A DNA stretch of 64,000 bases from Amoebophrya sp. A120 (taxonomy: Eukaryota > Protista > Dinoflagellata), in NCBI GenBank assembly GCA_905178155.1, contig CAJINV010000007.1, positions 3,738,265 to 3,802,264 on the forward strand. The letters run 5' to 3'. A program made the position numbers and the translations under genes. Shown here in pieces: positions 9,001 to 60,500 of this stretch (position 1 is the first letter of the stretch; each line of letters opens with the position of its first letter). Below the pieces are notes generated by a model. The model was not told where the DNA came from. It did not search any database and worked only from the letters and a program-made list of their open reading frames with translations.

Positions 9001-12000
9001 GAAGAGATATCAAATGTAAAAGTGTCTGGGTCTGGAAGATTCCGGGATTTGTGATGCATATTTTGTATGATCCATGATTCATGTAATGCATGATCTAGCA
9101 TCACAGATTTTTAGAGGGCTTCCTGATGCCTATTCCGCATGAGAGATGCCCTCTCCCGTGATAGGATCACCGTGTCTGATCATTAGACCCCCTGTATACT
9201 TTTTAGCGCGCAACCGGCCACGCGCGTAGTTCTTCGAGCAAGTTTGTAAGACTAACCCATCAAGGCAATACTGGAACTCCACCTTGCTCGCGGGCTTGGA
9301 TGGTAAGGCAGGTCAGCCACACATCGCGCCCACTGGCTGTAGCCATGCGTAAGCAATCGATAGCGGTTTTGCAGGTGCAGCCGGGTGGTAGTTAGGAAGT
9401 GGGCCGCGTCTCCACCTAGGGGTATCGGCAGAGGCTAAATCTGTTCTAACGCCCAGGTATTGGCAGAGGCTAAATCTGTTCTAACGCCCACCCGCCAGGA
9501 GTTAAATGGTACTACTACTACTACTACTACGCGTAACACAAACAGGACCCCTGTTGCTGGTCACGCAATACAGATTTTTTTTGGGATCCACAGACAGCAT
9601 GACAAGTTGCAACTTTGGAGACCCAGACAATGTTGCAATCCATAAGAGATGTACATGAACCAAGTCCAGCACTTGTCCGTCCAGTTGTTAACTATCGCGG
9701 AGGTGGTGCTGCAGATGGAGCCGAAAAACCGCAATTCGCAAACGCCCTACTGCGTCATCCGCGTGTTGACGCAGCTGTTTTTCCTGACCAAAGCCATGAC
9801 GGAGGCCAGCTGGAAGCACTTCGGCAAAAAGCGCAAAGCCTTCACCGACGCCAAGTCGAGCAGCGCGGGCTACTACAGCAACGTCGATGAAGAAGCCTCT
9901 CTGTCCAAGCAGGAGTTCACGGAGATGCTGATGCGGGCGAGGCTGGCGGACTACTTGGAAGCGGACCTGTCCTATGTGTTATACCACAAACAGTTTTCCG
10001 AAACGTTTGTCTGCGACGTGCAGAAGCAGGAGGAGCGGAAGTTTCTGTTCCGGATTTTATCCTCCCACTGGCAGGCGAATTTACAGCTGCGGCACTTCGA
10101 GTCCCACGTGGCTTATGAGATCCGGATGGCAGAGTGGCAGAACTGGCGCGGGCGGGAGCTGAATTTAACGCGGGCCACGAAAACACTATGTGACTACGCG
10201 CGGAATTGCTACGATTTGCGGAAAACACAATACTGGTACAAGGGTCTGGTGGAGTGTTTGGAGAACGAAGTGGTTGCTTACCAGTCCTGTTGCACCGTCG
10301 GAAAGGACTATGAGACCTACGGTGAAACATATGTCAGGCATACGCAACGGGACCGGGTGACGAAGACGAAAATGTTCTTTAACACGGCGCCCGACGCGGC
10401 GGATTCAGGTACATCATCCAAGAAAAACCGCAACAATTTATCCCGCTGTGAAAAAAATGCATCGCATTCGTTTGCTATTGGAAACAGTCTAGGCATTTAA
10501 TTTGTTTCTACAAAATTTGAAATTTTTAGCATGCAACCATCAAAAGCACAACATGCAACCTGCGAAAGTTTTGCTGCAGTCATGCATGATTGCTGCAACC
10601 CTCATGCACCGTGGCATTTATTGCAGGTAGTACTTGCATTCAACATGTTGAGTAAAGAGAACCTTCTCTCTGGGAAGTTGGGACTCGTCGAGTGCGATTC
10701 GCTTTTGCGCAGCATACAACAACCTGGACGGAACATCAAGCACTGCGAAAAACAATACGTCCTCGAGCAACAAGCCCAACCCGCAGTACACGAATTGCGG
10801 TTCGTTTCACATTCTGCTGCAAAGAATTTTGATCACGTCCATCAATTTCGACTTGATCGCACTGGTTTCCTCCTTCGACTCGTCCCTTCCTGCGAACGGG
10901 GTGAAGAGGGAAAAACATGCGAAAAACAAAAAATACCTGTTCGAGATGGAAGAATTGCTGCTGAACATTTTCCCGGAGCACGTGGTTATTCTGATGCTCC
11001 GGAACGCATCGCTGGTGTTAGCGTTTTCCCGGGCGATCTCTAACTCGTTGTGGATTCGGAACGGCATGGTTATCAACCGCAAAAGTGTCTGGGTCTGAAA
11101 GGATCGGAACTTGTGATGCGTGTTTCGGATCCTACAGAGATCTGTGATGCATAACGTGCAAAAGGTGCCCACTTCTGGCCATGCTGAGACGGCATTTCTC
11201 ATGCAGAATACGCATCACCAAGGAGCTACAGAACCTGTGATGCTAGGCCCTGCATTCCAGCAGTGGGGGAGCTCGGCAAAACTGCATGACAAATCTCGGA
11301 ATCTCCCAGACCCAGACATTTTTGCATTTGATAATGGTGATGCAGGAACAAAACGAGGCGTATCTGGAGGATGGACGGAAGCTATGGCGTTCTCGTCAAC
11401 TGTTACATTCTCAACTGTTGCATGAATTTGCCATGCAAGAATGGCAAAAGTTAAAGGGATGACCTTGCGCGTCTTGCATGACAGATTCCGCCCAGATTCT
11501 CAGTCTGTTTGGCTCTTCGAGAAATTGTCATGCGAAGCAGCTTGAGCGTGTCAATTCTGATTGTGATTTTGCATGACAAATCGTGTAACAGTTGAGAATG
11601 TAACATTTGAGAACGCCATAGAAGCAGGAGGACGTTTTGACTTTGCAGTTCTGCGCCATGATGCTCACCCTTCATCGACGGAAGCGGGAGCGGGAATCGT
11701 GGTTGAGAAGGGGAAGATTTTTGGACTTTGTGAAAAACGAGCAAAAATCTTCTGGTCGAAAGGAGAAAGCGGTGGTGGAGGTGATGATGGGTCGGGAGGT
11801 CGAAGGCGCGCCGGCCGAAGAAAGACAACATGACGATGAACAACATTTCAACACGTCAGCTGGCGTTGGGAGCAGTAGGCCGACAAACACTGTCGACATC
11901 CCGATCCTCGACCTGACAACGACCACCCTCCAAACCGATAATTTACTGAACACCAGCACGACGAACACGGGGACTATTTTTGCGGGAGCTGCAAACAACT

Positions 12001-15000
12001 TAGTACCTGGTGATCCGAATTACAGCAAGGGGGCCTCCTTCTTCCCGGAGGAGTCACCTTTCTCCACCGCACGGGAATCCGAACAGCAACTCTCCAGCTC
12101 TTTCGAAACCGCGGACTCGAAATTGCCCTCGGCGAGTTCCGCCGTCAGTTCGGCCAACGAGGAAGATGAACTACAGGTGAAAAATCCCTCCGGAAGTAGT
12201 GGTGACAGTATGAAGTTCTCCGAGGCCGACGATGGCGGGTACGACTTGAAAAAGAGAAAACTCGACCAAGAAGCGCTGCAGAACCTGAACCTTAATCAGG
12301 GTGCAGCCGCAAGCTCCAGCATCTCTTTCGCGACCAGTGGTGCCGGATTTTACAACAACGAGGACCAGAGCAAAAATAACGTAACAGGGGCGATGGATCA
12401 GTACCAGATCCTGCATGGCCAACCGTCTTCTAGAATGAACAAATACAACTACGACTTCATGGTGCACACAGCTTCGGATTTGCATCAAATGTCGATGGAG
12501 CTGGGCCATGAGAAGAACGACTTCCTCGAAGTACTGCTAAGGACAGCTGGCGAAGCCAGCAGTTCATCGAACAATACCGGTCTTGTTCACGCGATTGCAT
12601 CACAGAAAGACCGGGATGCAATTCTTGATGAGTTGCGAAAGCCGGCGGCGCACGAGAACCGTGATCAGCACGTTCCTTCTTGCTCCGTCGACACCTCTTT
12701 CGAACCGGACTTTGCACTGCGGCTAGCCGAATCCCTTTTCCTGGTCCAATATCTGCCGAACCCCCTGATTTACAACGATTTCGACGGAACGACTTCGCCC
12801 GGCTCGGTTTTGGATCGAAATTTCTACGCGCGCTGCCTGCTGTACGGGTCAGACGTGATTAAGAAGATTAAACAGGAAAAACCCCAAACGCGGAACAATC
12901 CCTGCGAAGTGGTGAACAAGTTTGTCTCCCGGATTTTGGACGACTACTACTTGGTGCAGGAGATCGTTCACGACGCACCCACCAGCAGTCAGAGACAGGC
13001 CGAAGCCGCGTCCTTCCAGTGCCGGCTGGATTCCGCCATGCCCGTGGATGTGGAGCTCAGGAGAGAATTTGAAAGAAGTTACGGCACCGAGGATGAGAGA
13101 CAAAACAAGGACAACATCGAGTGCAACTTGCTGGAATCGCCGACCTACTTGATCAATCAAGCGGCCTACGTGGCGTCCAGCGAAGTGAATGTGCCCATCC
13201 TGTTGAAGCACCAGCAAAACATCTTTGACGTTTACCACCAAGACTTGCAGGCGAAGATGTTGAAGGAGCATAAGGCTGCTGCGCAAGGAGTAGATGTAGA
13301 TCTTAGAGCAGCAAGTGGAAAGAACAAGCGTGCTGGTGTTCGTGGATCTGCATCTACAACTTCGGCCAACATTTTTCCTTCGAACAAACAGGCCCGCGTG
13401 TGGCCGAGCTGCAAGGACGGTGCGAGATTGCACCAAGCGCTAGATCCGGAGCTGCAAGCGGTGAAGATCACCAACGCCGAAGTATTGCGGTTTCTGCTGG
13501 AGGAAATCGCGTTGAACCTCCTGAATGTTGCCTCCAAACACGATTTTTGGACGTCCGCGTTTCTGAAATCGCAGACCACAAGCAGTACCAGCTCCAGCAT
13601 GGTGGGGACGCAGACATCCGGGTACCCATTGGAGACGTTTTACCACCTGTTGTCCGTCACGCTCGCTGATCCGGATTGTATCTTGCAGGAGCAGTTGATG
13701 GCCCAGCGGGAGAACTCCCGGGGGGAAAACGCCGACCTGTTCAACGGGGGAAATGGGGAGTACGCGAGTGTATCAAATGCAAAAATGCCTGGGTCTGGAA
13801 GATTTCTAGATTTGTCATGCATATTTTCCATGACCCATGATGTCTGTGATGCATGCCGCAGCATCACAGATTTTTAGAGCGCTTTGCGATACCTCTACCG
13901 CATGAGAAACGCCCTCTCCGCGTAGCGCAAACTGGAGTCCTCTTGCTGGTCATGCAATGCAAATTTTTTCAGAATCCAGAGACAGCATTACAAGTTTAGA
14001 ATGTTCCAGACACAGACACTTTTGCATTTGATAGAGTGGGTTCGGAAACAACAATGAAACCGCTGCGTCCAGTCCGGCAGATGGTGTCGCGGCTTCCAGC
14101 CCGGTTGACAAATTAGAAACGGAGAAAGAGCTGGTGGAAATCTGGAACGTTTTACCGGCGGACTTTTTTGCTGGAGAAAGAAAAGGAGAGCAGGGGATGA
14201 GCAGTGACAGTGAAGACGATCGTGCTGCTTCTATGCAGGATAAAAGGCATAATTCTGCCTCTTCGTTCAACAATATTCTCGACGAGGAGGAGCAAGATGA
14301 AGATCACGAGCAAGCAATCTTACTCGCGATAAACACCAGCTCCATCACTCGTGCCTCGCAGCAGCGGCCGTCCGCCATGTCGGCAGCGTCTAATTCCGCG
14401 AACCGAATCCAGCTCAACCAGTCGCAGTGCGTTGCCCGCGAAACCAGGATGGCTTTCTGCTTGAAGCGCCAGCTCGTGCAGATCCTGGCCGGGGGGAGAT
14501 TTTCGCGTTCGGAACTCGAGGCCATTGTGCAGACGCAGTATCCAGACAGGATTTGGCAAAAAGTGTTGCCGGAAATTTCGGATTCCGTTTGGTCCTTCGA
14601 CACAAAACAGCTGAAATCTACCGCCCGAGGGGGCGGCGCGGTGACCACGGCAAGCTCGCCGCAGAATGAAGACGAAGAGGTGGCGAATAAGGACGAGAAG
14701 AAATTGTACTACATGCTGAAGAAATCTTCAGGTGCCGCAGGTTCTGGTGGATCATCTGGCGACGCAAAGAACATAAACAGTTCCAGTATAGAAGTCAAAC
14801 CCGCCGTATCCACAGAAAAAAACCCATCCACATCCATTTTTTGCATGACAAACACAGGACTTGGTACGTGTTTTGCATCACAAATTGGATGTGGATGGGT
14901 TTGTTTCTGTGGATACGCCGACCTCTACGACGCCGCTTACAACCAGTTTTTGATCCCGAAGCAGAAGCGCACGGAAAACTTGGTGGAACGTGCGACCGAA

Positions 15001-18000
15001 AATTTAACGAGGGTGAACGCCGCGATGCTGGGGCTGGACCCGAAAACCTGGTTTAGGGACTACACGCATGATGAAAATCTTCGTGATGCTGATTCTACAA
15101 ATTATCCAATGGCTTCATTACTGAACAACAGCTCGTCCGAGGACGAAGAAGCCTTCCATGGAGTTGGACCAGGTGCGGAAAATAGCGCTGACGCAGCTGC
15201 ACTGCTCGACCAGAACAGTACGGGTGCCTCCACACCGGTCCGGAAAAAGCGCAAGGTGTTGAAGATGATAAACCAAGAAAAGCAAGCTCGCGGCCCCGTA
15301 TCGGACGATGATGTTGATGGCGACAACGACCCAATGGACGTTGATGACGTTGACTCTTCTGGAATGTTGAAAAAGACCGCAAAAACTGTCCTTCTCTCCC
15401 AGCAAACTATCTGGGAAAGCATCCGACAGAGGAGATTCAAGCTTTTGAGAGAAAGCATCTCAGGACACGTTGCAAAAACGAGCACCAGCAGCACCTCCGC
15501 GGGTGCAACAGAGCCAGCTGTTCCTTCTGAGCAACAGCCTCCATGGCCCCTGTCGGACACGAACTCCAGCTGGGCGATTCTCCTGCTCTTGGCCGCCGGG
15601 TGTCCGAACTCGGAATGTCTGCAACCGCACGTGCTCAAGCTGATCGACGCGTGTCGCCCGGCGTTTGCCGCCAATGAGCGCGTGGATTGCAATTTCCAGC
15701 GGGTTCTGGTCCACTCTCTGGCAATGGACAAGCCCGCTGGGAAGCTGAATTCCAAAGTCTGCTTGCAAACGGGAAGAAGCTTGAGTACCGGGGGGATGGT
15801 CATGAACGGTGCCAGTTTTCATCATGTTCGTCCTCACGCGGGGTCGTCCGGAGGCGGTGCAGCTTCTGCAGGCGGAAATAGATTTCCCCCGCCACCGAGC
15901 ACGTCAACAACTCCAATAAACAGGTTGAATCTATTCCAACCTGGGCCCCCGCATCAAGGCGAGCCGTATCGTGACAGAGCGGGCACCGCAAGCACCGAGG
16001 GGGATCCGTCAACGTTGGAAGAGAGCCGGCAGAGGTTACGCGACCTGGTGCGGAGCACCAGGAATGGTCTCAGCTGGGAAGCAGACGAAGACGAGCTAGT
16101 ACAAGGAAGTTCTTCTACCGCAGCTGCTGGTGGTCCCAACTACACGACCGGCGCAGCTTCTGCGCCACGACCACTTGGGGAGCAAGCGAGTACTTCTAGC
16201 AATGGCGCGGCTGGTTTCTTTGACCAGCAAATAAACGAGCCCAAACCTCTGCCCGCCCCGCCGAACAGCACAGGCGGGGTGGTTCGGATCGCGTGCATTC
16301 CGTTGAAGCAAAATTTGGTAGAGCAGGACCTGGTGAAGGAGTCGCAACAGCATCCGAGAGCTCCCGGAGCCGTGCGGCTCTCCACGTATCTGGAGCAACG
16401 GGAAAACGTCTTCGGAGGCATCTTGCACGACGGGAAAACAAATGAGAAAAAAAGGCTGTTGGAGGTGGCGGAGCAAGAGCAACCTAGAAGTAGAACATCT
16501 TCTTATTTTCCATCGAACGCGGAAGCGATAGTGCAACATACCTCGAATTTAGCGAGAAACGCTGCGGTAAGGAAGTTTTTTGAGCAGTTCGAAGATTGCT
16601 GTCGGGAGAAGGAAGCCGTTGCCTTTCGCTTGACCCTGTACCTGCTGATGCAGAAAAAAATGAAAGCAAAACTGGGCCGCGCATCCTCTAGTACTGCGGG
16701 AACAAGTACAACTATTAAAGGAGCTACTAGTACTAGCAGCACTGCTGGAATTACTAGTACAACAGGCGGGCGGTCTTTGATCACGAGCCACACGATGTCA
16801 CAACTTCAGCAGAACGTGGTCGACAAGAAGGGGTTCACCGTGAAAGTGAGTTGCGTGAAGAGCAATCACGACCAAAACGTAAACGGTACAAGCGAGGAGG
16901 AGGACTCCGTTCGAAACATGACCTATGATGTCGACAAGGAGCACGAACACCTACGCCAGCAGCCTTATAAAAACAGTGATATCTTCGACGATGACGCAAG
17001 CACAAGCAGCGGTCCACTCCAAATCGGTGACTTGATTTTCGTAGACCATCAGTCTGACTTTGCGAGTTTTGCAGTGCAAAACCGAAAGCCACGAGCGGCG
17101 GAGGTTCATCTTGCACGTACAGCTCTATCTTCGTCGGACAGGAGCAAGAGTCAGGCTCTTCGAGGACTTGCGCAAGTGGACGAAGAGGACCACACAGTAT
17201 CAACTTCCTTCACGTTCTTCGAGAACCCAAAAGTAGACTACTATACCGGCGACGGAACGACCCCGAGGACGGGCAGCTGCACCAGCGACTTTACAGGAAT
17301 GACCTCCTCGTCCTCGAACAAGATGAGCATGAGCAACTTCCTTCTCCGGCCCAACGCGATCGAAGCGACCGTGTTGACCTCGCAAATTTTCTCCAACCTG
17401 TCCTTTGCCGCTCGGAGTTGCCAGGAGTACTCGGAGGTCGATGCGTTGCTCCAAAAAGCCGAGCAGTTTTTCGAGGACAATGGGTTTGACACGCTGCGGG
17501 ACATCTTGGAATTCTACAACCAAGAGGAAGATGCGCAGTACTACGCTCTGGTACAACAAGCAAACGAAAATCAGGAGGAACTGGCGATGAAAGCGGGACA
17601 AGATGTCGGCACGAGGAGTGCAGGCGCTGCGGCGGGCGTAGCTCTCGGTGGAGCTGCAGGGGGTAGTACCAGTAGTAGGACGAACAAAATCTTCTCCGCT
17701 GGCACGGCAGCTGCGCAGCAAGACAGTACCTCTCGAGCCACGACTTCTATTGCCGCGGAAAACAAGAACAGGGCTTCTACGGTCGCTGCCCCAGGACTAC
17801 AATGGGACGAAGAGTCCCTGCAGAAGATAAATCGCAATCGCCCTACCTCGACCTTGGGAGTGAGGGAAGAGAAGCTTTTCCGTTTCACGGTGAGGCAGCA
17901 GATCGCAGCCTACCTGAAAGGGTGGCAGATGGAGCAAATTCCCGGGGCGAAGCAGCTCTGGGACCGGTGCGGGAAGGAGTTGTTTTTCGTGCCGCAATTT

Positions 18001-21000
18001 TTGGACCAAAGCCAAGAGGAAGGTGCATCGTCAAAGTTGAACAAAGCGCGACATAGCAACAAGTCGTCGGTGAACGGAAGTCCAAAGGAGGAGGCGAGAG
18101 ATGAAAGTAGAAAAAGGGGCGACGAAAACAATGATCGTCCAGACTTCGGTCCACAAGTGGCAGTGCCGAAAAATAATAATGGACTGACGCCGGCGGTCCC
18201 TCAGGCGGCCGTCGGAGAAGCGGGGACAAGAATTGGAGCAACGACCAGAGGACAAGATCAATCCTCTTCGGTTTCTCCATCGAAACCTCCGACAGAGCAA
18301 AAACGAACCGGGTTTCTCGGTAGTCTGTTCAATGCGGTTTTCCCTGGTGGCACTGCATCGACCGCAGCAGAATCCAACACGGGATTGAAACTCGTCGATC
18401 ACAGTTCGGTAGCGACCAGCGGAACTGTTGGACCTTCTACATCGACACTATCTAGCACTTCTGCCGATCAGGTTGCGAACAGCGAAATCCAAACCACCGC
18501 GAGCGGAACTTCCGTTCCTTCATCCACAGCGGCGAGCAGTGCCTCGACTGCCGGAGCATCAACAGCACAGGCCGCTGGTGCTGCCGCTGCGTCAGGGCTT
18601 AGTACAAGAACTGTTGCGGGCGCCGGGGGTACTTCCTCGGCGTCAGCAGCTCAGGCCGGCACGGATGGTGTAGAACATAATCCCGCAGGAGCTGCTGCAA
18701 AAGTTGGGTCTAAGTCGGCCGGTGTTCTTGAGAAAGAGCAGTCGAAGAGTGCAGCAAAATCTGCGGACCAGACTCTGGAAGACAAGAAAGCCAAGGCCAA
18801 GAAGCGGCAGGAGGCCATGCTCAAGAAGATGAAACAGAAGCAAGCCAACTTCATGAATAATACCGAGACAGCGAAGCAGCAAGCGGCCTCCGGGACGAAA
18901 AATTCATCTGGTGGTGCTGGGGAAAATAAAACTGCCACAGCTCCATCTCCCCCGTCCGATGACGAGGAAGACGAGCTGACGTGCTGCATCTGTCGTGTCG
19001 GCGTGCAGACGGCGCACAAGTACAACAATTCATCTTCTGGCGGTGGACCGGAGGAGCTCCACGACGTGGCGGGATACCTCAGTCTCTTCGAAACCCGTGG
19101 CGCCGGCCCGGGCAGCTTTTTGAACAAAGAAGGAGGGTGCTTGTCTTTGACGTCATGCAACCATGTGGCGCATTTGGAATGCTTGAAGAACTACTATGCA
19201 ATGCAAAAGCGTCGTACTAGTATAAATTGCATTTTTACAAATTAGCCAGGCATATACAAATTTGCAATGCTGACTTACCTTGAAAAAGAGATTTGTAAAG
19301 CCCATAAATGCAATTACTAGGACTACGATACTTTTGCACAGGATAAATACCTTCGCGAGACAAAGCCGAACGCAAACAACACGCGCACCCAGGAACTGTA
19401 TTTTTATGCCCAGGAAAACAACGAGTTCGCGTGCCCTTTGTGCCGGTCCGTCTGCAACGGACTGCTACCGTTGAACGAGCCGATTTGCATGGATTGCGAC
19501 GTGGGACACAACCAGGATCTTAGAAAGTTGTTCGACGAAAATTTCGCCCAGCTGACCAAAGAAACGGAGGTGCTGTTGCAAACCGGGCTCGAAGTTTCAA
19601 AGGCAAACGGATTGATAATGATGTCAACGTCTTCCTCAGCAGGTGACGTGGTTTCCAGCACGAATGCGAATGGTGAAGCCGGTACAGAAGTTGCCGCGCC
19701 GTCAGGGACAACTACAACCTCCTCCACTACACAGCAACTAGTGCCCGCCACTGCACAACACGCAGCGGCGAGTTCTTCAAGTTTCCACATCTACCCGCTC
19801 TCCTTCCAGCTGGAAAACTTGTACTTAAGATCCAAAGCGGATTCCGTAGTCTCGTGCTTCGACCCGGGGCGCAGTACTAGTAAGGGGATTCAGTACAATG
19901 CAGCTATGAGCAGTGCCCTCAATTATCCGTATCCAGATTTTGAACCAGCTGCAGGGGACCCCTTTTACAGTGCGCGACCAGGACAACATCAACAAGGTGG
20001 GGCAGCAGCACCGAAGAAAACATCCAGGCGGGGGACCAAGGACCAAGACGGCCTTCAGATGCCTGATAGTAAGGACATAAAATACCCCCTGCGAATGAAC
20101 TCGCCCCTCTTCTACATGGCAGCCTCGCTGGAAATGTGGCCGCACGATATTGCGCGGAATCTCATCTTCCCCCCAGGGGAACTGGTTGACGAGGTACAGG
20201 AGCTCCCGCGAGGGGTGGAGCAAACCGCACTGCAACTAAACGGGAAGAAGTCACCCGGAGTTCTCGGAGCAGCTACGAAGAGCAGCAGTCCCCCGTACGA
20301 AGAAGTTCGGTTGTGGCACAATCGAAGACAGGAGTCCCTGCGGAAACGGCGACACTATCTGGAGTCCGGAATGATTCTCCAGTACGACCTGTCTCTCTTC
20401 CTCACCTGCCCCGACCGGTCGTGGCCGGACTGCCACCCAGAAACCGACTTCAACACGTATCTGATCCCCGAGCCCGCGAAGAAGGGGACGGCTGGGAAAA
20501 AGGTGAAGAAATCTTCGGTGAGCTACGAGGATGGCAGCTACTCGGACGCGGAAGAGAACTTGGAAGAGGCTTTGAACGAATTCGAAACCATGGTGGAGCG
20601 GGTCGCGAACGAAATGAACGTGCCGACAGCCGGGCTAACAACTGGTACCAGCACGGGAACGGACAATCAGGGCGGTGGAGCTGGAGGTGCACTGGATGGC
20701 ACGTCAACACCTCTACAAGATCCCGAGTTCCCAAGTGGAGGCCAGTCCGGGGCAGCTGCGACAGGAACGATAAATAAGGCGGGTAGCCGAAAACTACAGC
20801 TGAAGCAGCTGAACACCGAAGCTGCCAGTCGAAAACGCGCCATTCGCCCCCTGTTCTACCGCCCCACGACCGCCGCCGGCACGGTCTATGTGGAGGACAA
20901 CATGCCCGACCCGATGACGCGGGATGCGAAGGAGATCTATGCGTTGCACTTGCACTCCCTAACCCAGTTACCGCAGCGCCTCGAGATGCTGACGCCGTGG

Positions 21001-24000
21001 AACTGCCTGCACAGCTTTGTGGAAGAGTTGAAGCTCCGGATGCATGTCTTGCCCCACAGTTTGCGCGACGAAAACAGTGCCGAAAGTTCCAGCACGAGCC
21101 CTTTCTTCACGCACATTTTGCGGAATTTGTTGGGTCTCTCCAGCGCGTTGCTCTACTTCCAAACCTACTCCCCGCAGTTCGGGGCCAGGCAGAACTGGCT
21201 CAGCAATCAGAAGTTGGCGAACATTCTTTGGAAGTACCTGTACCGAGATGTGATCGCCGGGGATTTCATTGAACTAGACAGCGACGAAGATTTTTTGTCA
21301 CCCGAAAACACTCTCCCACTTCGCGGATCCTCGTTGGAAAAAGAACCCAAAGCTCCGAAGTTTTTGGTCCCGAATTATTCGGAAGAGGAGTTCGAGGAAC
21401 TGCGAAAGGTGGTCAACAGGTACCTCGATGGTACCACTTCAACTTCTGACGAGCAGGCTTGTTCAAAGAAGGAAAGAACGTCTTCTGCTGAGGATAGAGG
21501 CAGCAGCGGTGTTTTGGCGGTGAAAGTAGAAAATGGGAAGGATGAGGAACATCGTCCTGGTGCGGATGTTAATAACCTTCTTGACAGCAAGAAAACTCCC
21601 GATGCCGGAATATTAAATGGTCCCAATGCAGCCAAAGACGTCAACAAAAATATTGACACGACGACAGAGGCGGGAGCCAGGATACAGGAGTACCAAGCCA
21701 GATTTGATCGCGCCGATAGTTCTGGCAACTCGAATGCGGATTTTCTTGCGGCTGCTGCGCAAAACCCTCCAGTACCACTACCCCTCGCCGAGATGGCTCG
21801 GCGTCGCCAGCGTGATAATTCGCCGAGTTCCGTGAAAGCCAATCGGGGCTCCAGCTTCGAGACGGAGAGGAACGCATCAAGTACCCGAAACGACAATAAA
21901 TACGACTCCGACGCCGGTGGCGACCTCGCAGCTGCACCAAGAAACGAAGATGCGGCGTGGCTAAACACCACTTCTGCGTGGCTAGACACCACTTCTCTGC
22001 CGCCGGACGGCATGTACCCACCGCCACCTCCGCCACCCGAAGCTCCTGGAAATAATAAAACCGGCACGACGCCCCCTCCGCAGTTGACAAAAACGCCCAT
22101 TGCGACGATTGCGCTGAAGAAAAATATCTACGACATTCTGGTCTGGTACCCGCGCGCGCTCGAGAAGCCGGATGACTTGCGCACGTCCCGGAACAACCTG
22201 CTCAGCAGTTCTTTCACAGCGGCGGGCAGCGACGGCGTCCACAATTTGCAGAATCGCGCGCGCAACCGGTCCGGAAGTTACAGCTTTCATTTGCGGAGCC
22301 GCAAAGGTTCCGCAAGCTCGATTCGGGGGACGAACAATCCTGCCGCAGGTGGCATTGGCGCGCAGGCGGCGGCGCAGTACGATCAGGCGGTGAGGGAGAA
22401 TAATCAACAGCAGCAACCCAACCGAAGGCTCTCAGGGAGGAACGCGGTTGTACCCGATCCAGAAACCGGCGCTCCCGCGACGAACAATGGCGCCGCGCCC
22501 GGTTTCGGGTTGAGTGGACTTGGGCCCAGGGGCGGGTTTTTTGTCGCGACGCCCGGCGGGCCCGGGAGCCTTCCCGGCGGAGTGCCCGGAGGAAGTTCTT
22601 CAGAGGCGGGTAACATTCACAACACCTCGAACGTCGATCCCTGGAACTTGCAAAGCCACCTATGCATTGCAAAAGTATCGTACTAGTATAAATCGCAATA
22701 CAAATTTTTCCAGAAGGAAAAATAAATGGAATTTGTAATGCTGATTTCGCTAAGAAACAAGATTTGTCATGCATGCTTGCAATTAGTACGAGCACGATAC
22801 TTTTGCACAGGATACCACCTGTTTGACGACGATTTCGACATGGACCAACTCCAGCCCGATCATCTATCCGAGGCCCACCTATGGATTGCAAAAATGTCTG
22901 GGTCTGGAAGAATGCGCGATTTGTCATGCAGCTTTTTCATGACCCATGAGGTCTGGAATGCAGGACCTAGCATGACAGATTCTGCGCGATCTCTCTCATG
23001 CCTATCCTGCATGAGAAACTCCCTCCCGACTTGGTCAAAACTGGACGACTTTTGGTGATCATGCAACACAGATTTTTGCATGCTTCAGATTTAGCATGAC
23101 AAGTTGCATTCCTCCAGACCCAGACACTGCTACATTTGATACCACCGCGCCCACAGCGACGCCTTCTGGAAGCCCATCCGCCTGGGGAGCGAGTTTTTCC
23201 ATTCCCTACCCCTCCGCGCGCAGCACTGGCTGCTGATCGACAAGGCGATGGAGGTGCTGATGGTGCACTGCGACCTGAACCTGGGGACGAACTACCTCGC
23301 CGGCACCGGGATCGGGTCCAGTTACAGCAGTGCCTACGATCACTACCTGGATTGCTTACCTGAAGACGTGCCGTTTGCTGGCCTCGGCGCGGCGGGTAGC
23401 GACTCGAAACACGACGTGCCCGATAGCCGAGTGATGAACACGATGAAACTGTTTGCTGAGTTGGTAGAAAAAGCAAGCACAAGCGGGTTCAAGAACAGCA
23501 GCGATTTGAGGGCGTTCTTACTGGAAAGAATGAAAAAGGCTTGGATAGTTGGGGGGAATATAACCGAAGCTGAGAAGGCCGCTGCTGGGCGGGAGGGAGT
23601 GAAAAGCGAAGATAGTACTAAAGTGAAAGTAGCAGTAGAAGCAGACGAACAGAAAGCGGAACATCTTCAGCAAGCGTCTTCTAGTAGTAGCAGCAGCTCA
23701 AGTAGTAGCGCAGCTGTGAAAGAAGACGTAGCCACAGTATCCGCACCACCGCGGTCTTCACCATCGAGAGAAGCAATAGAAAACAGACAAGTTCCAAGAA
23801 CGACCGTCAGCGAGATCACGTTTGACACCTTTCACTCCGACCTGGTGCAGGGCATGGGCGACGATCGCCCGCTTACCTTGTTGGAAGTCGTAGCTGCGGA
23901 CGAGCCCAATGCGGGCGCGAAGGTTGCTCCTGGTGCGAAGGAAGGAAAAGGGATGAAGGAGCCCATTGACAAAAGAACTCGCACAGCAGCTTCTGCGCAA

Positions 24001-30930: not shown

Positions 30931-31290
30931 GGCGCGTATGCGTTTATTTTGTTGGATATCCTTCTCGTTGGACAGTATGTAGGAGCAGGTGGGATGTTGC
31001 CGCAATGTTTCGCCGTTGCGATGCAGTACGTGCCTACTCATACAATTAGGGGCCGCCCACTCCCACTGACACTGTTAATAGTGGAAATCAAAAAATGGCT
31101 GCAGTAGACGCGGCCATCGGTGTTCAACATGTTGCTCTTGGTCCATTTCGCGCACGCATTCATTGTCCTTCCTTGCATGATATTGAGCGCTCAATAAATC
31201 CTTAGGGCGCGCGTGGCTAAACGAAGCGACCAAACGCGGGTTGTCCAGATCAACATGATTGGAGATAAAGCTAGAAAGTTGTAATCCAAG

Positions 31291-47708: not shown

Positions 47709-48798
47709 AAACCTTTAAAAGCTATGACTTAAGTACTTACTACAAACATTTACCTTGACTACCAAAACAAATTAAAGATGTAACAAGCGATCGAAATGAA
47801 ATTGAAAAGCAAGGCGGCTTGTCTTCAGAGAAAGATCATATCACGGCGAAAAGCCTCAGGCTATCGTACAGATTTAATAGTTATGTAAAAAACTCATCCA
47901 CACCGACCCACCCCTTGACGAACGTTGTAATAAGATACGTACATCAATAAGGAGCAAGCGATTAAAACCGTGCATTCTACTTCACCTGAAGCGATATCTT
48001 GACAAAACGCGCATCTCACAAAATTCATCAATAAATGCGAATTTACTTCTCTTAGTGTGGGCCTCCGCTTCAACCAAGCTGCAGCTCCAACCAAGCTGCA
48101 TCTTCGACGAGAACGAGTTTTGCACACACGAACGGACCCCACTTTTAACTCTCTGCGCAATACCCCCGACAGGGTAGATGATGATGATGATTCGACTATC
48201 GCTGCGCCTCTATCTCGGGCTTGACTTTTGAACACAAAATTATGTACCTGTTTGTGAAGCATGGAAATGGATTTTGCAGTGCTATACATAGGAATATGAT
48301 ACGCCATGATCAGTAGTTGGTGAAAGTCAAGCCCTCCATTTCTTGTGTGTTTGCGTATCGATGGCGAGTTGACAAAAACGCATTGCACTTTCGGGTTTTT
48401 TCGTCGTATTGCGTTTGTATGTATTTATAAATGAGTGGCTTCTACTATTTGTCGGTCTTCTTCTCCTCCCGTGTGTACAAATTTTGTATTTGTACGGAGA
48501 TTTCACAAGCCGAAGCACCATGCGAGCTTGCTTTCGATGACCCCGTGCCCATCTCTGAGATATTCCCATACTCTAGCGAAAAGAGTGAAACATGGTCATG
48601 GGATTGCATATCTTATCAGTGCTGCGCCTGTGTCTGTGCGTCATTTGATTCTGGTGTGGTGACTGTGCGTTCTCCGCCCGTCCAGTGAATACAGGAACAG
48701 CACGCTCGTCAAGGGAATACAGCAACATCCAGTTCTTGTATATTACATTAAGCCTATTTTTGGTATCGCCGATCTTGTGATCTTCTTTTTCACATAAG

Positions 48799-50787: not shown

Positions 50788-51579
50788 AGATGTCAGAGAA
50801 AGACAAAGAAGACTAGAGAAAGACAATATGAAGCTCGCCGGCATTTAACGAATGGAAGTTTTCACTGTTTTTGCTTGGAGGCATTTTTCTGTGTCATTCC
50901 TGCCAACTCTTCTCAAACAAAGAGAAATTTCGTTTGCGTGAAGATGTCATGTTCGACATTGATGAAGATGACCTTGGGTTGGTATCCTAGTGAGGGAGCA
51001 AGAAGCTGCTTAAAAGGTTGTGTAGTCAGTCCGAGAAAGAAAGATTGTCCGACCAACATCAGCGCACAGGTTCGTCATCATGATCCAGGTTTTTCTTGTG
51101 ATGGCAATTGCTCAGGGTCAGGTGAGCCACCAGATCCGATGCTTAAATATCCATATTGATCCGATTCTTGAAGCAACGATCTAAGTACATCATGAGTCTA
51201 CAACAAGTATGGTGCCAGACGACCACTTTCTCTGTTGAATACATAGGACAAACTGGTGACTTACGATGTCGAAGAGGAGAAAAGGGATCAGTTCTTGCAG
51301 GCAGCCAGGGCTCTCGTTATTCAACATTATTCCACCTATGTAAAACGCAAAGCCGAACCCGAAGCGCAATTGCGTCACTGTTGTTGCGATGGAATGTCCC
51401 GTATTTCACCCCCCATGAACAACCTGATGAATCGTTTTAGTCCCGTGTCTGTTTGGATTTTCGTAGCGCTTTACACGACCCCGATTTGGTCCGGGACAAG
51501 CTTTGTCATGGGAGAAATTGAATGAAAATGTCTGCAGTTAAACTGCAAATGGTGAACTGAGAAATTGATCAATTTTCAA

Positions 51580-54500
51580 ATGAGTCGCGAAGCGTGGGGT
51601 GTGGTGATATCCTCGGGCCTAGAAGCCGTCGCGGCCCAGGATGCAATTACCGCTCGCATCGCCGCTGCGATCGAAGTGCGCGACCGTCTGATTGCAGGTG
51701 GCGCGACTCCGCAGCTACTGGGCGTGTTTTTCGAGAGGCTGGAGCCGGCAGTGTGGCTGGGTTTGCAAGCTAACATTTTCAACAGTCTCCTTGGTCGGGA
51801 TGTGGGAGATGGTTCTCCAGCGTCCTCTGAGGCTGAGTCACCGGACGGGAAGGATGCTTCACCGAACAAAAGGCAAACACAGAATATTGAAGGAGACCAA
51901 TTGAACCGGACCGCACACCCATTCCTTTCCCCAGCCAACGTAACTGTGAATTGGACACCGCAGAAACGTGACCTGGTCGTTTGGCTGGGCGGTCCTTTGT
52001 TGCTTACAGAAAGTGAGGCGCTCCGCGCGAGAGCTAAGCTTCCGGTGACCGAGGAAGCTTTTTTGCAAGGATCCGTTTTTGAATTGGTATTGGTGTCGCA
52101 TTCAGATAACGGGGGTGGCACGCATTGGCTGAAAGTGGAGCACGTCGACAAACCCCTTGCGGATATGATAGGCGAAGACCTGCACCTGCAGCTCTCGCCG
52201 CAGAAGACAGAGGCATCCGCGGCTGCTCGTGGTTCAGGTTCGACCATGGCTGGAACGACCTCCACAGTGGGACTTTCTGTTTCGTCAGCAGCCTCTGTAA
52301 GTGGAAATAAGAACAATAAACCGTCTCACAGAAGCAAACGGTTTTTCTTAATCCCACCAACTTTTATCGAATCGCATCCCTTCGAAATCTGGCGCGGTAG
52401 GGAGCTGCTCTGCAGTTTAGGTGACTTAATTGCTATCGATTACGACCAGAAGAATAAGGCACAGGAAACACGTAAATACGCTGCGCGTTCGTCCATTGCC
52501 TCTTCGTCGCGGAACGCCGTGGCGGAGGAAACATTGACTGGCGTCACGGCTGCTAGCCGCGCTGGGAGTTTCACAAGTCCGCGACAGCCCGCGCGCGGCG
52601 GTGCTGTTGCGGCTGCTGTAGCTTCTTCCCGGAAGCAAGATGGCGACAGTGCGTGCCGTGGTACTAGTGATGACGTCGGCAAACGCTCATCCGCGGTGAT
52701 TCACGAAACTGAGTACTCGTCGTTCCCCCATCAAAAGCTTACTGAAACACGCTCAGCGCTCGACCTTGAAGCTGCACATAAAAATCCAACGAGTGCTGAA
52801 ATGGTTCGCTTGCTGCAAAGTGAACTCGACCGACGGCCGCAACTAACGGCGGGATCGTCTGCAGCTAGAACCTCGGCACTTCATGCGGTACCGAATAAGC
52901 GTCAAGCTACCTCCGGCAAGTCCTCCTCGATCAAAAAAACTAGGCAAAAGCAGCTTCTTGTGTTTCTACAAGACAACCAGGACCAGCCCACGATGGACAA
53001 AAAGGCGGCGTCCTCTTGGAGCATCACCCGCGTCTCATCGCTACCAGAAATGCAACTGTGGTTAGGTGAGGAACCAGACGACTTCAGCCTCTTCGTGATA
53101 TTTGTTTCCGGAGCCGCGAAATTTTTGCACGAGGAGTTGCAGATGCTGACGCTGCGCCGCACAGCCGCTGGCGCTGGTGATAAAGATTCCGACAGCAGCA
53201 CTTGGAGCTTTATTGCATCTAAACTCTTCTTACGAGCGGAAGAGAGCAAGAAGAAAAAGGAGTGCCAGCAACAGGCTGAAAAAGGGCTCAGTGAGTTGCT
53301 GACATGCGGCTTCGACGCGGTTGCGCGAAGTGGGGGGAGTGTGTTGGTGGTGAACGATAGAGAAATTATTGCTAGGTCTGAGAAAACAAAACCCGCGTTT
53401 GGAACTGCGCGTTCACAACTCGGTCGGGCGGAAGAAATCCTGCTGTCTGAGTTTGATAACCTTATCCTGTGCAAAAGTATCGCTATCGTATTCGTATTGC
53501 AGTCATGCAATACAAATCTTTTTCTTAAGGTGAATCAGCATTACAAATGTGATTTCTCATGCTGAGAAATTTGTAATGCATTCATACGAGTACGATAGGA
53601 TACTTTTGCAATTCATAAACCTGTCGCACAAGCAATTGAACAAATGCGCGAGCGCTTCGGGTTGTGGAAACAAGGCCAAGCAGACCAAGAAGAAGAAAAA
53701 GAAAAACGATTCCTGCGCAGAAGCAGCTGTGAAGAGTTCTACTACTACGCGAAAGACGTCCCGAGAGCATGATTTTGATTTGCTCATGCCTATGCCCGAA
53801 CAAGGAGAAACTCACAGCCAGACAAGTGCTTACGTCGCGCGTGTTCATGTGTACTTCTCTTGTGAAGTGCCTGCATCCGCGGAGTCAGAGCAGCCACAAC
53901 AAGCACCAGCAGCGGGCTCAGCGGCAACGACTGAAAAATCCAGCTCGTTCACACCGAATCCAGACGTTCATTCTGAGATGGGAGTTAATGTTGTTGCTGC
54001 GGCCAAGACCCCAGGAAAAGTAAAGAACGCACTGCAGCACTGCGCACAAGAAAGGTGGTTGGCGCCTGCGTTCCCGCAAAAGGACCCAGGTTACACTGAA
54101 AAGAGCCAGAATGTGAGCGCCTGTCTTCAGAACGCAAGTAACAGTGAGTCACAGGACCAGGCAGCCGTTTCTGCTGATGGATGTTCGGGTTTGGTGGAGA
54201 CCGTTGGTACAGCAGGTTTACCTCGTGCAGTTTCTGCAGTTGATACAGCACCGGGTAGTCTCTCCGTCGATGCTCGGGCTGGTTTTGAAGAACCGGAGCA
54301 ACTCGAAGGACAGTACGACGGTGCAGCCAGAGGCGACACTGCGCCAACGGGTGCAGCTGGCCGAAGGAAATGCTCGGCGAGCGACGACGAGACGCATCAC
54401 GATGAAAATCCATTCCGCCCTGCAGAACTACGCGGCGAGAAACACGCTCCCCGACAAGTACACGTCGGAAGTAGCGAGAAAATGTGTGCGAAAAAAAGTC

Positions 54501-57500
54501 CGCCATTGTGTACAGGAGAACAAAATGCAGAGCCTAGAGGAAAGATGAAGATCATGTCCGTAGTGACAACAACGACCTCAAGTGGCAGCACGAAAACAAC
54601 CGCTTCTCCACTGTCGCCACGCAGCCTGCTGGAAAGCTGTAGTGGCACGACGGCTTCCTCGTCTGATCGTGATCACGATCGAGAAAGTGTTGACGCCTCG
54701 CTGCAACTCTCTAAAAGTAGAGGTGAAGCATCGTCCTCGTCCTCATCCTGCGTTACTACTCCCAATGAAAATGATTGCGCCGGCTCTTCGCGGCTTCCAA
54801 GCACGTTGGAGAGTGTGATGTCCTCACCGTGTGAGACTACAGGTGGAACCACGAGCGACACAAGGGTATCTGAAGCCGATGAACACACCAGTTGTACGTC
54901 TTCAGACCATGGCGCCCCGGCCCCGACTGGTGCTGCTGGCAAACCTAAAAAAGCGGTACGAGTACAAGCAGCGAACAAGAAAGCCACGGGTATAAAGCAG
55001 ATAGTCGCAGTCGAAGTTGTTTCGTCTCCGCGTCCCAGCGGTGCTGCACCTGCGACCAGTTCAAGTGAGTCCAGCTGCAAGAAGGCACAGCATATTGAGT
55101 CCCTCCGAACAAGCAGTGGACTTTCTGCCGATCGAGCCACAAGTGACAGCAAAGTCGAGACAAAGATGAAGCTAGGTGTTGCCGAGGATCCGGCGGCTTC
55201 GTCGTTACTGACCCCCGCTCGACGACCAGCTCCTGCACAGGCGTGCAGCTCCCATTCAGAAAATTCTACCGCGAACAAGCTCTCTAGTGCGAAACAGAAA
55301 CGACTCGAGCTGCTCCGACGATTCCAGGAGGAGCCGGCAGACGGAAATTTGACAAAATTTGCGGACCCAAGCTACAAGCCACCTGCTGTGTCGGAGGCGT
55401 CGCTTCCTACAGAGCCCAAAGCCAAAGTCACAGACACGAACATAACTAGGCCCTCGAAGGAAAAGGATGGCCCGGATGTCGGTGCAAACAGTTCGTCGCG
55501 GTTGATAGCAACTGCGCCTACGCCCCAGGAACGGCAGCGGAAGGAACCGGAACCGCCGAGCTCCTCGGGCCAGGTTACGACTTTAAATATCCCCAAAGAA
55601 CATTCACTTTTGTATGCTGCCGCTTTGGTGCGAATCTTGGATGAGAAAGACAACCGTTGCGGAATCCTTGCTGTCCTGTGCCAAGACGAGCTACTGCAAA
55701 AAGTGAAGGCTATAGTCGATCCACTTGGGAAGCAGAAGCTTGGACGCGTTTTGATCCGCGTGATCGAACAGTGGCCCGACACTTTTCGTGTGGTCGATCC
55801 GGCCGGAAACAAATTCTGTGTCCGGTTGAGAAAGCATTCCGAACCCGAAGTCGACTGGTGGCGCAGAAAAGTTGACTTCGCTGCAACATTTAAGAAAGCA
55901 AGAGAAAGAACTGAAAACACGCCGGAACGAAACTCGGCGAAAAATGAGAAGGACCGGTCGAAGAGTTTGAAGACAATTACCGAGCCGCCGCTGCCACACC
56001 CGACCAATGAGCCGCAGGAAAAACGAAGTTTCCCCGGCCCCCCTTCCGTTTGTCCGCCGCCACCACCTCCACCACCACCCCTTTGCGTTCCCGTCGAGGT
56101 CCAGACTTTCTCTAGCGAAGCAAAAGAATTCTCTTCGAGAGGAGCAAAATTTCATGCTCTCGGAACTTGCAAGCCATGCGCGCACCTGCCTCGGTGCGTC
56201 AACGGGCGTGACTGTGATTTCTGCCACGACTGCTCCCCAAGTGAATTCAAGCGGCGTCTGTTGCAAAACAAGAAAAACAAGCAGAAAGAAGGCGGCACCA
56301 ACAAGGCGAACCAACAGAAAGATGAGCATCATCAAGACCGCCAGTTCTACAATTCGCAGGCCGATGCGACCTATGCCGCGACATCGTCAGCGCTAAGCTC
56401 CCCAGCGACACCACCTCCGCCACCTCCCTACAACTTCATGCACCACGAATACGGACACGGTATCGACCCCGCCCCACTGAAACAGCCCCCACTCGTGTCC
56501 AACACGGCACTGAAAACGAAAAATGATGCATCGAAATCCAACACTCTCACCGATACCACCGCATCCAAAAAGCACCACTGGAAGTACGACGCCATCGTGA
56601 TGGCGAAAGAGGCAAAACAGGTGGCGCCGAACCTGCAGTGGCGACAAGGCGTCGTCGAGTGGGCCACCAGCCCGACCGACCCGAGCAGATCCTTCGGCGG
56701 CATTCTGTTGAACGACGCGGGCGGCTTCGGTGGGTCGGTGCAAGCGCAAACCGGCGGCGCAACGGTGTGTCACTTCGAGAAGAACAGCGTTGCCGGCACC
56801 TTTCGCCTGCCGCCCGCCGCGGGCGACGCGGTGCGCGTGATTCCAAGAAGGAGCGGCAACTACGAAACGAAGGAGCGGAAAGATGTTTGGACTGGGGAGG
56901 AGAAGGTGTCGTACGCACGTTCAAAAGCGAAGAAGACCGAGGTGATCGCTTGGAAGTGGGGGAAAGACCTGGGAAAGGAGGAAAAATTTCGGGGGTTTTC
57001 GCATCTGTTATTAGAGATGCGGGCGTTCGAGGAATGGAGGCCGTTGCTGGAGGAACTATTGGAGGAGGTCAACGAGGCGAGTGGTGGATTCGAACACGAT
57101 ACTAGGTGGACGAGGGTGAAGGAAGATATGGCTTCTAAACTCCTGCTCGAAGAAGAAAGTGTTGAGGGCGCTATGGAGTCAGAGTTCTTAAAAGGCCACC
57201 GACCAGGCGGTCACCGAATAAAAACAAAAATCGGACAACAGAGCAAGCACGCGTCGCTGCCTGTTGCTGCAGGACCGGCTGCAAAGAAGAAAGCTGACGA
57301 GCAGAAGCCAAGATCGAATGCTGTTTCGCTTCCCTGGATTTCTGACGAGTCCTCGGAAGAAGACAGAAGACATCGTGGTCGACAAGACCGCACGCGGATA
57401 GAGAAGCGGAGTAAGCAGATGAGGGCGACAGGTGAACAAGGACAGCAAAGCGAAAAACTGTCTTCAGCAACAACTTCTTGGAGGCGTCGATTGGTCGATG

Positions 57501-60500
57501 ATTCCGACCGTTCACCTGGAACGGACGACGAGGAGGAAGCCCCACATGATCAAGGCAGCGATGATGATTTTTGGCTTACGTCCTCCTCCGACGAAGAGAT
57601 AAATCCTTCTGGAGGTGGTGTCTCATCCCTACCCGCGACCACCAACACAGAAGGTTTCCCGCTGCGCAAAAACCTCTCCCCACTCCAGGTCAAACGCCGG
57701 CGGGCCGTGGCGGAGTCGCACGAGGCGTTTTGGGTGCTGTGTGTGCGGGAAATTTTGTTGCACGTTTTGCCGGAGTGTGGCCAGCTGTTGGAAGAGTGGA
57801 AGCCGTTCCCGAAATCTGCGTTGCCAATTACACCTTGGGAGACGACCAACACGTCCGCGACAGTTGCACCGTTCGGGGCCTCGGCAAGTAACTCTTCCAA
57901 TAGTCACGGGAACTATCACAAACCAGCTCCATGGAGCAAAAAGGACAGGTCTCCTTCGCGAGCTGACTTCGCTCGTCGCGCCTTGTTCTTCCTGCGGGTA
58001 TTGCACCTCTTCACCGTGATCGAGCAACAGTTGCACACAGGGCCACTGCAGGTTTTTCTAGGAGCAATCGGGAGTCTTTCTGAGAAGCATGCGGCGCAGT
58101 CGTATGGAGCTGGCGATGAAGTTCTTTTCGGGAGGAATGCGTCCTCGTGTCCCACTTCGACCAGCACCTCGCCCTTGCTATTATTCTGCAGCTTTTTCTT
58201 TTGTGGTTTGCTTCGCTCGTGCAGCGACGAGGGGAGCACGACTTCTGGCGCAGACGACAACTCGTCACTGCTAAGCGCGAAACGGAAACTGCAGCAATAT
58301 GCACCGAAGGTTCTCTTTGACTGCACGAATCATATCGCAGAGAACGCTGCGAAATTTGTTGACATTTGCGGGGCTTCAGTCATTCCGTTTTTGACGACGG
58401 CGCAGGCAGTCGCGGCAAATCTGGTGAGGAGCCACATGCTGCTGCAGAAGGGCCACCAGCTGAATATCACAAATTCCGCATTTTGCATTCACGGTAGTTC
58501 GGGGGCTGGAAGAACGACGCAGAGGAGGTCCGGCTGGTCGTCCTCTTCTTCTTCACGCGGGCCCAAAAGCGGAATATCTTCAGCACCGAACAAATTACAT
58601 CACAACAAGGCTGCACGCGACAGCGAAGATGCCCCTGTTTGCACAAAATACTTGCACGAAGACGTGGCGCACGTGGCCGCAAAGAGTAGATACAGCCTCC
58701 ATAGTACACCAAGTTGCGGAAACATGCCTTTTGCATCAGCAGGCACAGGATATCACGAAAACGTTGTTCACACTAGTACCGCAGTGCCAACATCACAATT
58801 CCTTGTCGGCGAGGGCGAACAAGTTTTCTTCTTCCTGCAATTATTGCAGGACATCGCTCACACGAACCACGGAAAGCTCACCACCGAGCTCGCCATACTC
58901 TTGTCCCAGCGCGATCGGAACAAGGACGCAAAGCTGGACTTTCTGAACCTACAAGACGTGCCGTGGCGCGAGTTGCCGGATCGGCCGACGGTAAGCGAAC
59001 TGCGCGACCCGAGCAACGTCGAAGCCCCCTTGCCGAAAATCAGCTTCGACAAGCCCTACAGGTCCTTTGAGGAGTACATGGAGACGCAAGTCCGCCTTTT
59101 TCGCGAGGACGGCATCAGTAAGGTCCGCCTGACCATGAGCAAATACATCAAGGACAAGCGCATCGTGTTTCGCGAAATGGGCATGTACCACTCCGTGCTG
59201 GTCGGTATGCACACGGATCTGAACAAAGGAGGCACCGCCCACAGCAAATCCGCCGTCAGTCTGGTGTTCAAATCGCTGAAGCCCTTGGGGTATGAATTGC
59301 AAAAGTATCGTACTCGTATATAATGCATTACAAATTTCCTGCTCAGCATGAGAAATAGAATTTGTAATGCGGATTTACCTTAAGAAAAAGTCATGCAAGA
59401 CTTGCATTTATACGAGTACGATACTTCTGCACAGGATATGGGGAAAGACAAGGAGGCGGAGAACATCGCGAAGCTGTGGGGGAAGGAGGAGTTGCGGTAC
59501 GGAAACATGGTGTATTTGTCCTTGAAGGGCACCTTCGCGGAGAGCTGCATTCTGTTCGGGACGATCACGTGGTCGGATCTGCTGGACCAAACGGGGCTGT
59601 TCATGTTGGAAGTTGCCGGGCAGGCCAGTTACGACGGCTCGCTGACCGAAGACGCCAGCCTGTTTGAGGTGATCACGAAACTCTTGGCCACAAACACGTT
59701 GGTCGTGGCGGAGCAGCTGACCTATTACCCGGCCTACGGGCCGGTCTTGAAGGTTCTGCGGGAGAACTTTGGTAGCGCGCGCGACTTGGCGTTTTACGAA
59801 GAGCTTGTGTTCGGGAAATTCCAGAACAAAGCATTGAGAATTTTTAACGGTGCTACTTCTTGCGCAGCCGCAAGTACCAGTGCAACTCCCGCCCCGTGGG
59901 ACGGCGCAACGAGCGCAACCCGGATGCCTCGAGCGGCGCGGCGAAGGTTTTTCTATCTAGATGAAGGAAAAGACCGGATCAAACTGCCCGCGCGGCTGGT
60001 GTTTGGCCCGGAAGCGGGGGAGGTTTGTGTGACCGTGGCTGACTGCTGCAACCAGATCGAATACAACGAGCCTGGTTTTTTTAGACAAGGAAAATCAAGG
60101 AAGTTCATCAAAAATCGAACACCCCCCGGCCCGGGGCTCCCGGGAAATATAGATGATGTGTGTGGGCCCCAACCATTTCGCACTTCCCCCCTGCGGAGCC
60201 CGCCCGGCCATGCGCTGCCGCTGGCATGTGTGTCGTTTTTAGTTCTCACGCCTGCGCATGTACGAGCCGAAGCGACCCCAGCATTGGCTCTGCAGCCCTG
60301 CTCCGGTTCAAAAGTAGGCGCCTATGAAAGAACAGCCCGAAGGCGTTCGAAGGTGGCGCGCGTTTAAAATCGGCGCTATTGTGCCGAAAGCGTTCCGGGG
60401 TCCCATTTTTTGTCCTGTCGCAGCGCAGAACGCTCCCACTTTGTCACCTGAATCTGTTGCGCAACTCGAAGAATGTAGAGCAGCGACATTACGTCCACCA

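Follow-up and report, generated by a model that had tools for sequence, protein, structure and literature searches.

A 64,000-nucleotide stretch of the genome of the marine parasitic dinoflagellate Amoebophrya sp. A120 (contig CAJINV010000007.1, positions 3,738,265 to 3,802,264 of the forward strand; called the window below) carries copies of miniature inverted-repeat transposable elements (MITEs), which lie in both orientations within coding sequence. Terminal inverted repeats, a target duplication of fixed length and numerous unrelated flanks identify them as such. They are genuine and belong to a known, published intron system, the introners of A120. Their full strand symmetry without GT/AG is a useful property, which has apparently gone unreported. 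Very probably the elements are removed at the RNA level, directed by their symmetric termini, and, given such a removal, a remodelled spliceosome would rather likely be the agent. As a whole, we cautiously favor a remodelled, likely U1-independent spliceosome that would read only the symmetric termini. For the copies of the window, removal from RNA is deduced from reading frame logic and from the published RNA-Seq data for this class of introns. A120 possesses tens of thousands of introns without GT/AG and has no detectable U1, and the question of their removal route is sharpened here: strand symmetry turns it into one of lariat versus circle, of efficiency by orientation, and of stem versus linear motif. 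A strand-symmetric removal would explain how such transposons invade exons at almost no cost.

The original prediction had described 53463-53617 as the reverse complement of 59291-59438 within a helicase gene, and 11071-11333 as reversed relative to the elements at 9008, 13771 and 22880 within a UBR gene. Both statements were borne out. Self-BLAST of the window yielded minus-strand matches of 53460-53617 to 59441-59291 (78.7%, 164 nt, E 5e-30), of 11071-11333 to 14033-13771 (72.1%, E 1e-30) and to 23141-22887 (71.1%), and of 9008-9155 to 11333-11186 (75.8%). As the elements have inverted ends, the comparison was repeated on the interiors alone, with 35 nt removed at each end and global scores calculated for the same versus the opposite orientation. 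The opposite orientation was still clearly best, with scores of 9 versus 81 for 53463 and 59291, 10 versus 122 for 11071 and 13771, -1 versus 131 for 11071 and 22880, and 31 versus 115 for 11071 and 9008, from which a nested insert had been taken out. All host frames lie on the plus strand. The UBR gene elements compared here form family A, with 9008..9644 (duplication AGAGA, nested insert of about 370 nt at approximately 9156-9526) as reference orientation, 13771..14033 (GAGTG) and 22880..23141 (CCACC) on the plus strand, and 11071..11333 (ATGGT, stops in all three phases) on the minus strand. The helicase gene elements belong to family B, with 59291..59438 (TGGGG) in plus and 53463..53617 (AACCT) in minus orientation.

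The elements end with TAT-N7-AAA...TTT-N7-ATA and are flanked by a 5-bp target duplication. A caller demanding a TAT...ATA pair, an exact 5-nt flanking repeat and a terminal complementarity of at least 14/25 found 12 pairs in the window; shuffled sequences gave none in 47 of 50 cases and one in the remaining 3. Including decayed elements, a total of 16 was counted. Lengths ranged from 109 to 637 nt, and the elements contain stops and no transposase. In a DNA run (X1) the summed depth over the elements reached tens of thousands compared to a background of about 43, and loose contig ends with many differing flanks accumulated at 43548 (74 contigs), 43784 (145 contigs) and 59291 (60 contigs). Searches of Rfam and of viral contigs with the sequence under study gave no match.

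Both host genes lie on the plus strand and become continuous when each element is taken out together with one copy of its duplication. The gene for a UBR-type E3 ligase (4587..28584, zf-UBR and PRT6_C domains) contains at least 12 elements, and its 5' part may start further upstream. Eight such excisions turn 10652-28584 into one frame of 5,432 codons. The family A element with the nested insert, at 9008, still fits the +5 register at 642 nt in total. In the superfamily-1 helicase gene (51556..64000, continuing past the window end), two excisions, those of 53463 and 59291, yield a frame of 2,832 codons for 51556-60367. Offsets of +2 and +8, identical to +5 modulo 3, restore both frames as well, while the longest frames at +0, 1, 3, 4, 6 and 7 comprised at most 1,507 (UBR) and 2,002 codons (helicase). 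The earlier claim that all copies restore the frame consequently holds for removal of the element plus one 5-nt duplication (or +2/+8), and fails at other offsets. The gene labels of the original prediction hold, too. The AAA_11 superfamily-1 helicase domain is found at 61954-63993, and because it sits past a further intron, we infer its tie to the 51556-60367 frame through a putative join across 60023-61953.

No annotated or orthologous full-length protein across the junctions was found in our searches, and the short exons next to 11071 and 59291 retrieved only chance matches from PDB and Pfam. The junction at 11071 (WIRNG...Q...Y) may resemble a UBR1 motif. The nearest named homolog of a neighbouring gene comes from Amoebophrya A25 (46% identity), and another eukaryote protein showed 49%. 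No RNA data set was listed for 51500-60400. For 42000-61999, no RNA record among the joints listed, most of them repeat joints of the DNA run X1, crossed a junction; the RNA runs X6 and X7 gave just 0 and 2 reads there, too few to serve as a test, and a further run presumed to be RNA (X5) gave low-depth contigs, none of them spanning a junction.

The orientation ratio per family, which the original prediction had proposed as a check, was determined on related loci. A pattern matching either family B end retrieved at least 145 stretches from metagenome contigs, of which 144 were stored. All frame-based counts refer to the 79 long loci among these, which share a single related assembly prefix and were likewise selected by the family B end. 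Using a coding-like frame of at least 200 codons as cutoff, 174 of 291 elements were found inside such a frame at +5 and 167 at +2 or +8, compared to 63-74 at other offsets. Overall, sense and antisense copies in open frames were about balanced, with ratios of 17:19 for family A, 29:32 for B, 4:3 for C, 1:4 for D and 6:4 for F, giving 57:62 in total for the 119 of the 174 elements that belong to a window family; the other 55 belong to none. One family occurred both ways within the same frame in 16 rows, corresponding to 12 distinct frames after merging of overlapping loci. The two-orientation cases of the window are the rule, not the exception. The length plus 5 was distributed over the three remainders modulo 3 as 65/54/55, and read-through was possible for none of the 174 elements; given these stops and random lengths, the elements must be removed. 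Conservation of family B was alike both ways, with 1 of 149 columns differing at p<0.01. Among 586 unique TAT...ATA pairs, for which no repeat was demanded and which take in internal and cross pairs, the exact abutting repeat measured 5 nt in 242 cases, 4 nt in 4 and 6-7 nt in none, with lengths other than 5 nt close to chance. A coding model that used the flanks only, trained on window exons, scored 312 cases, of which 160 below the margin were set aside, as were 34 of the 152 confident ones because of strand discordance; 102 of 118 confident same-strand cases matched removal of the element plus 5. Given the ratio near 1:1 in five families and the free target, all needed signals must lie in the approximately 22 terminal bases that are symmetric, and a strand-specific internal signal is ruled out.

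On the transcribed strand, the 5' ends of the 174 elements had the same base profile as their reverse-complemented 3' ends, TAT-S-NNN-TGC-AAAA, with A at positions 11-13 in 87, 89 and 93%; family C deviates from AAA at these positions. When the terminal triplet was left free in the caller, TAT was found at 400 of 424 ends. The composition of the duplication revealed no preference for G or AG. A seamless GT-AG cut was possible in 8 of 174 elements versus 11 in the antisense control, and G[TCA]-AG cuts that preserve the frame and lie no further than 8 nt away were available in 100 versus 90 (91 of the 100 remained after excluding stops). Branch-like motifs were present in 35 sense versus 33 antisense sequences. 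Hence the U2-type features (GY donor, AG acceptor, branch motif), looked for on the transcribed strand, stayed at the level of the antisense control, in agreement with the earlier inference that removal relies on symmetric features. A terminal stem with a probability above 0.5 was predicted for 151 sense and 150 antisense sequences out of 172, and folding of 7 window elements gave z values from -5.1 to -9.9. Element interiors, 29 kb in total and across families, contained 240 copies of the internal motif TGTVATGC and 228 of its complement, versus 0 and 2 in 39 kb of exons. Copies of families F and D, although found either way round, bear the motif predominantly on one strand, and the family B element 19195..19345 (plus orientation, one mismatch in the duplication) has none. 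For these reasons we read it as a probable transposase-binding array acting at the DNA level and probably not as a removal signal. Of the symmetric features originally proposed to guide removal, the termini thus stand, being without strand bias, while the need for a hairpin is unproven, as G-U pairs are not favoured (see below), and the motif array is doubtful. The use of both orientations as an argument against the spliceosome did not stand either. Inverted termini look alike both ways, providing identical linear ends in either orientation, so that the spliceosome stays in play. Spliceosomal introners that function both ways have been published for Polarella.

Anatomically, no difference to the A120 introners described by Farhat et al. 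(2021, PMC7789003) became visible in the accessible text of that study. An inverted repeat of TAT, 7 variable bases and AAA, short direct repeats (3-5 nt, 5 bp in the legend of Figure S19), many families, non-canonical boundaries and co-oriented genes are common to both, and the published introners come with RNA-Seq support and a hairpin model. Boundaries are given there as NT...NN, with T at position 2 in all nine predominant types. Elements of strain A25 start with TTA and have TT...NN boundaries, which under the cut register discussed below would give them the same U at +2 and A at +3; the motif of the window agrees with A120, not with A25. What we add is a ratio of the two orientations free of bias, a duplication of strictly 5 bp with free sequence, and the shared internal TGTVATGC array. 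In the text and supplement text of that paper, "orientation" is applied to genes alone. As far as their available text goes, the methods of Gozashti 2022 permitted matches in opposite orientation, and Gozashti 2025 discussed A120 introners without an orientation ratio. No statement on an unbiased two-way ratio for Amoebophrya introners was found in the literature searched, with figures, subscription papers and bioRxiv supplements outside the search.

Under the reading we favor, a transposase or integrase of the cut-and-paste or copy-paste type would insert the elements at a staggered cut of 5 bp, irrespective of strand. In the RNA, base pairing between positions 8-22 of the two ends would draw the termini close to each other, whichever the orientation. 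With cuts one nucleotide ahead of TAT and four nucleotides past ATA, one duplication would leave with the intron and the message would be scarless. The resulting 5' end, N-U-A-U-(G/C), would be a donor like GUAUG with a relaxed first G, supplied by either element end, and distance to the stem, not AG, would define the 3' cut. GUAUG is the donor consensus of yeast. This cut register was adopted because the published A120 boundary table contains NT...NN types alone, which fits; it is a soft register, since the position of a cut inside direct repeats is ambiguous for aligners. Our main reason to favor a remodelled spliceosome over a nuclease and ligase is that the donor would have U at +2 and A at +3, like canonical ones. 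Mismatches between the duplication copies (5, 7, 4, 9 and 11 by position) did not locate the cut site, and among 12 copies with decayed duplications in the loci +5 was favoured in 5 and another register in 4, with 3 ties.

We are aware that several observations weigh against this reading. The open frames set the cut position modulo 3 alone, 117 of the 291 elements lay outside long frames, and 9 of 117 in-frame elements carried a variant terminal triplet. In the flank-only test the strand disagreed in 34 of 152 confident cases and the phase in 16 of 118, so that host-strand calls are noisy. G was not enriched before TAT (32% versus 28%), and the inferred 3' cut site showed no conservation, a difficulty for the active site of a spliceosome. 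A terminal stem is expected from transposon termini alone, and over pairs 4-22 G-U and A-C were found in a ratio of 159:141 (p=0.33), revealing no selection for RNA pairing. Family B alone leaned to G-U (55:34, p=0.033, one among many tests), for which a mild excess of A>G could account. In the family B copies of the loci, A>G exceeded T>C on the transcribed strand by 115:83 (nominal p=0.027), as expected of transcription-linked mutation.

A possible, though rather unlikely, explanation is a non-spliceosomal removal from RNA, in which an endonuclease guided by RNA structure would cleave the foot of the terminal stem before the exons are sealed by a ligase, a route suggested for the nonconventional introns of euglenids. 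It would account for the complete strand symmetry, the lack of AG and of a branch motif excess, and the strong folding of both strands. The missing preference of G-U over A-C speaks against it, and so does the resemblance to a donor site that conservation of U (+2) and A (+3) creates under the published register. Euglenid introns are the closest working analogue, and for them the literature (PMC11282704; PMC12501133) reports ends other than GT-AG, inverted termini that pair slightly inward of the boundaries (by a few bases), repeats resembling duplications and a likely MITE origin; those with inverted ends exit as full-length circles, not as lariats (PMC11282704). They differ in their N3CDG...CH'GN5-6 signature, a purine after the intron and the circular form of the excised intron, and they stem from an unrelated lineage; the CAG...CTG (N3CDG...CHG) signature was absent from our TAT-N7-AAA ends. 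According to the text of PMC7789003, U1 was not detected in A120, while nearly all spliceosome proteins as well as U2, U4, U5 and U6 are retained, and 15% of its canonical introns carry the introner repeat layout; the latter two points disfavor a nuclease and ligase. The same holds for the non-canonical introns of the tunicate Fritillaria borealis, likewise described as MITE-derived, with inverted repeats, duplications and non-canonical ends, for which spliceosomal removal is reported (PMC11282704, as far as its available text goes), although their ends are mostly AG-AC/AG-AT and they have a preferred target. In a wider form, a fully strand-symmetric route would employ a structure-guided non-spliceosomal nuclease with ligase, or the transposon's own protein on the TGTVATGC array, measuring from the terminal stem and erasing any TAT...ATA transposon plus its 5-bp duplication in any target, phase and orientation. 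We regard it as doubtful; if true, splicing of the euglenid kind would have originated a second time, and the elements would be intron cassettes that leave no scar and do not depend on sequence.

Skipping between the 5-nt repeats by polymerase slippage or ribosome hopping, or DNA excision as for the internal eliminated sequences of ciliates, with RNA junctions arising in part from template switches of the reverse transcriptase, is improbable. Here, too, symmetry would be expected and the net loss equals the element plus one repeat, and a hairpin with a direct repeat is a classic slippage substrate. Nevertheless, the window copies 5897 and 8739 still fit +5 despite their decayed repeats, though in the loci this holds for just 5 of the 12 such copies, and at least 12 removals, one of them of 642 nt, would be needed in a single gene. 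Moreover, among the joints listed for run X1, DNA contigs pass from unique flank into the elements at a normal depth of about 42, and nuclear dualism is not known in dinoflagellates. Least tenable are ordinary spliceosomal introns with G[TCA] and AG near the ends of each strand and a few codons left or lost, as in Polarella: there is a published case of introns created both ways with sites of this kind (bioRxiv 10.1101/2020.10.14.339549, in the parts available), and sense copies of family B often have G[CA] at +4 and TTTTGCACAG near the end, yet 83 of 174 elements lack any viable G[TCA]-AG cut in a range of 8 nt, such cuts are as available as in the antisense control, 11071, 53463 and 59291 have no GY-AG option, 6 of 13 sense family B copies with built-in sites are in phase 1, where the cut mostly reads a stop (e.g., 22661), and the AG-bearing orientation is unfavoured (29:32). 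The introner-like elements of Polarella glacialis share with ours the origin from DNA transposons and the function as introns either way round. According to the available text of the same preprint, their G[TCA] donors and AG acceptors derive from either the element or its duplication, and they require particular target sequences and show an orientation bias in classes 6, 8 and 10, whereas here the target is free, AG is missing and no bias was detected. Splice sites from a constrained duplication, as in Polarella and, as cited in that preprint, in Aureococcus, were not found, as the duplications lack a G/AG preference.

The remaining elements of the window comprise a family B element at 22661..22814 (plus, duplication CCACC) and a family B-like one at 25050..25203 (TACAA, orientation ambiguous), and family C elements at 11383..11620 (GAAGC) and 43548..43784 (CGACG), both in plus orientation, the latter hosted by a gene for a trypsin-like peptidase. 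Further ones are a family F element at 3135..3413 (plus, GACAG) and an element of a further family at 5650..5828 (CCAAG), for which no strand is assigned. The family D element 14807..14915 (plus, CGCCG) is the sole window element that is stop-free and in frame when kept, adding 38 codons, and offers a natural test of removal where it is not needed. Two decayed elements still open the frame at +5: a family B-like one at 5897..6059 (plus, two mismatches in the duplication), and a family D-like one with decayed duplication at 8739..8879 (minus), probably reversed relative to 14807, for which the interior scores (72 versus 36) give a weak indication. Both end with ATG instead of ATA, by which a U-G pair with the first base is kept on the transcribed strand; one further ATG-ended case occurred in locus L002, and such cases are too few for a test. 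The candidate 49348-49645 was dropped because of weak ends and its position inside an Aminotran_3 match. Extreme element density was observed in the loci L048 (334-4767) and L059 (32-4626), with 13 elements in one 610-codon frame and exons of approximately 50-100 nt in L048.

Other insertions were noted in the window. A seemingly canonical GT-AG intron at 10409-10626 shows AG|GTA at both ends and TGCATG-like repeats akin to the element motif. Within the helicase gene intron lies a 1.9-kb foldback element (60081-61940) with arms of about 700 nt and 83% complementarity, which is multi-copy as judged from a depth of about 300-420 versus 43 in run X1. This intron ends with a T-rich tract and AG at 61953; GT at 60023 keeps the frame, GT at 60075 does not. 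Finally, a near-exact direct duplication of 35 nt (2104-2138 and 3098-3132), far exceeding the usual 5-nt repeat, surrounds an insertion of about 950 nt, whose inner inverted ends lie at 2177 and 3065.

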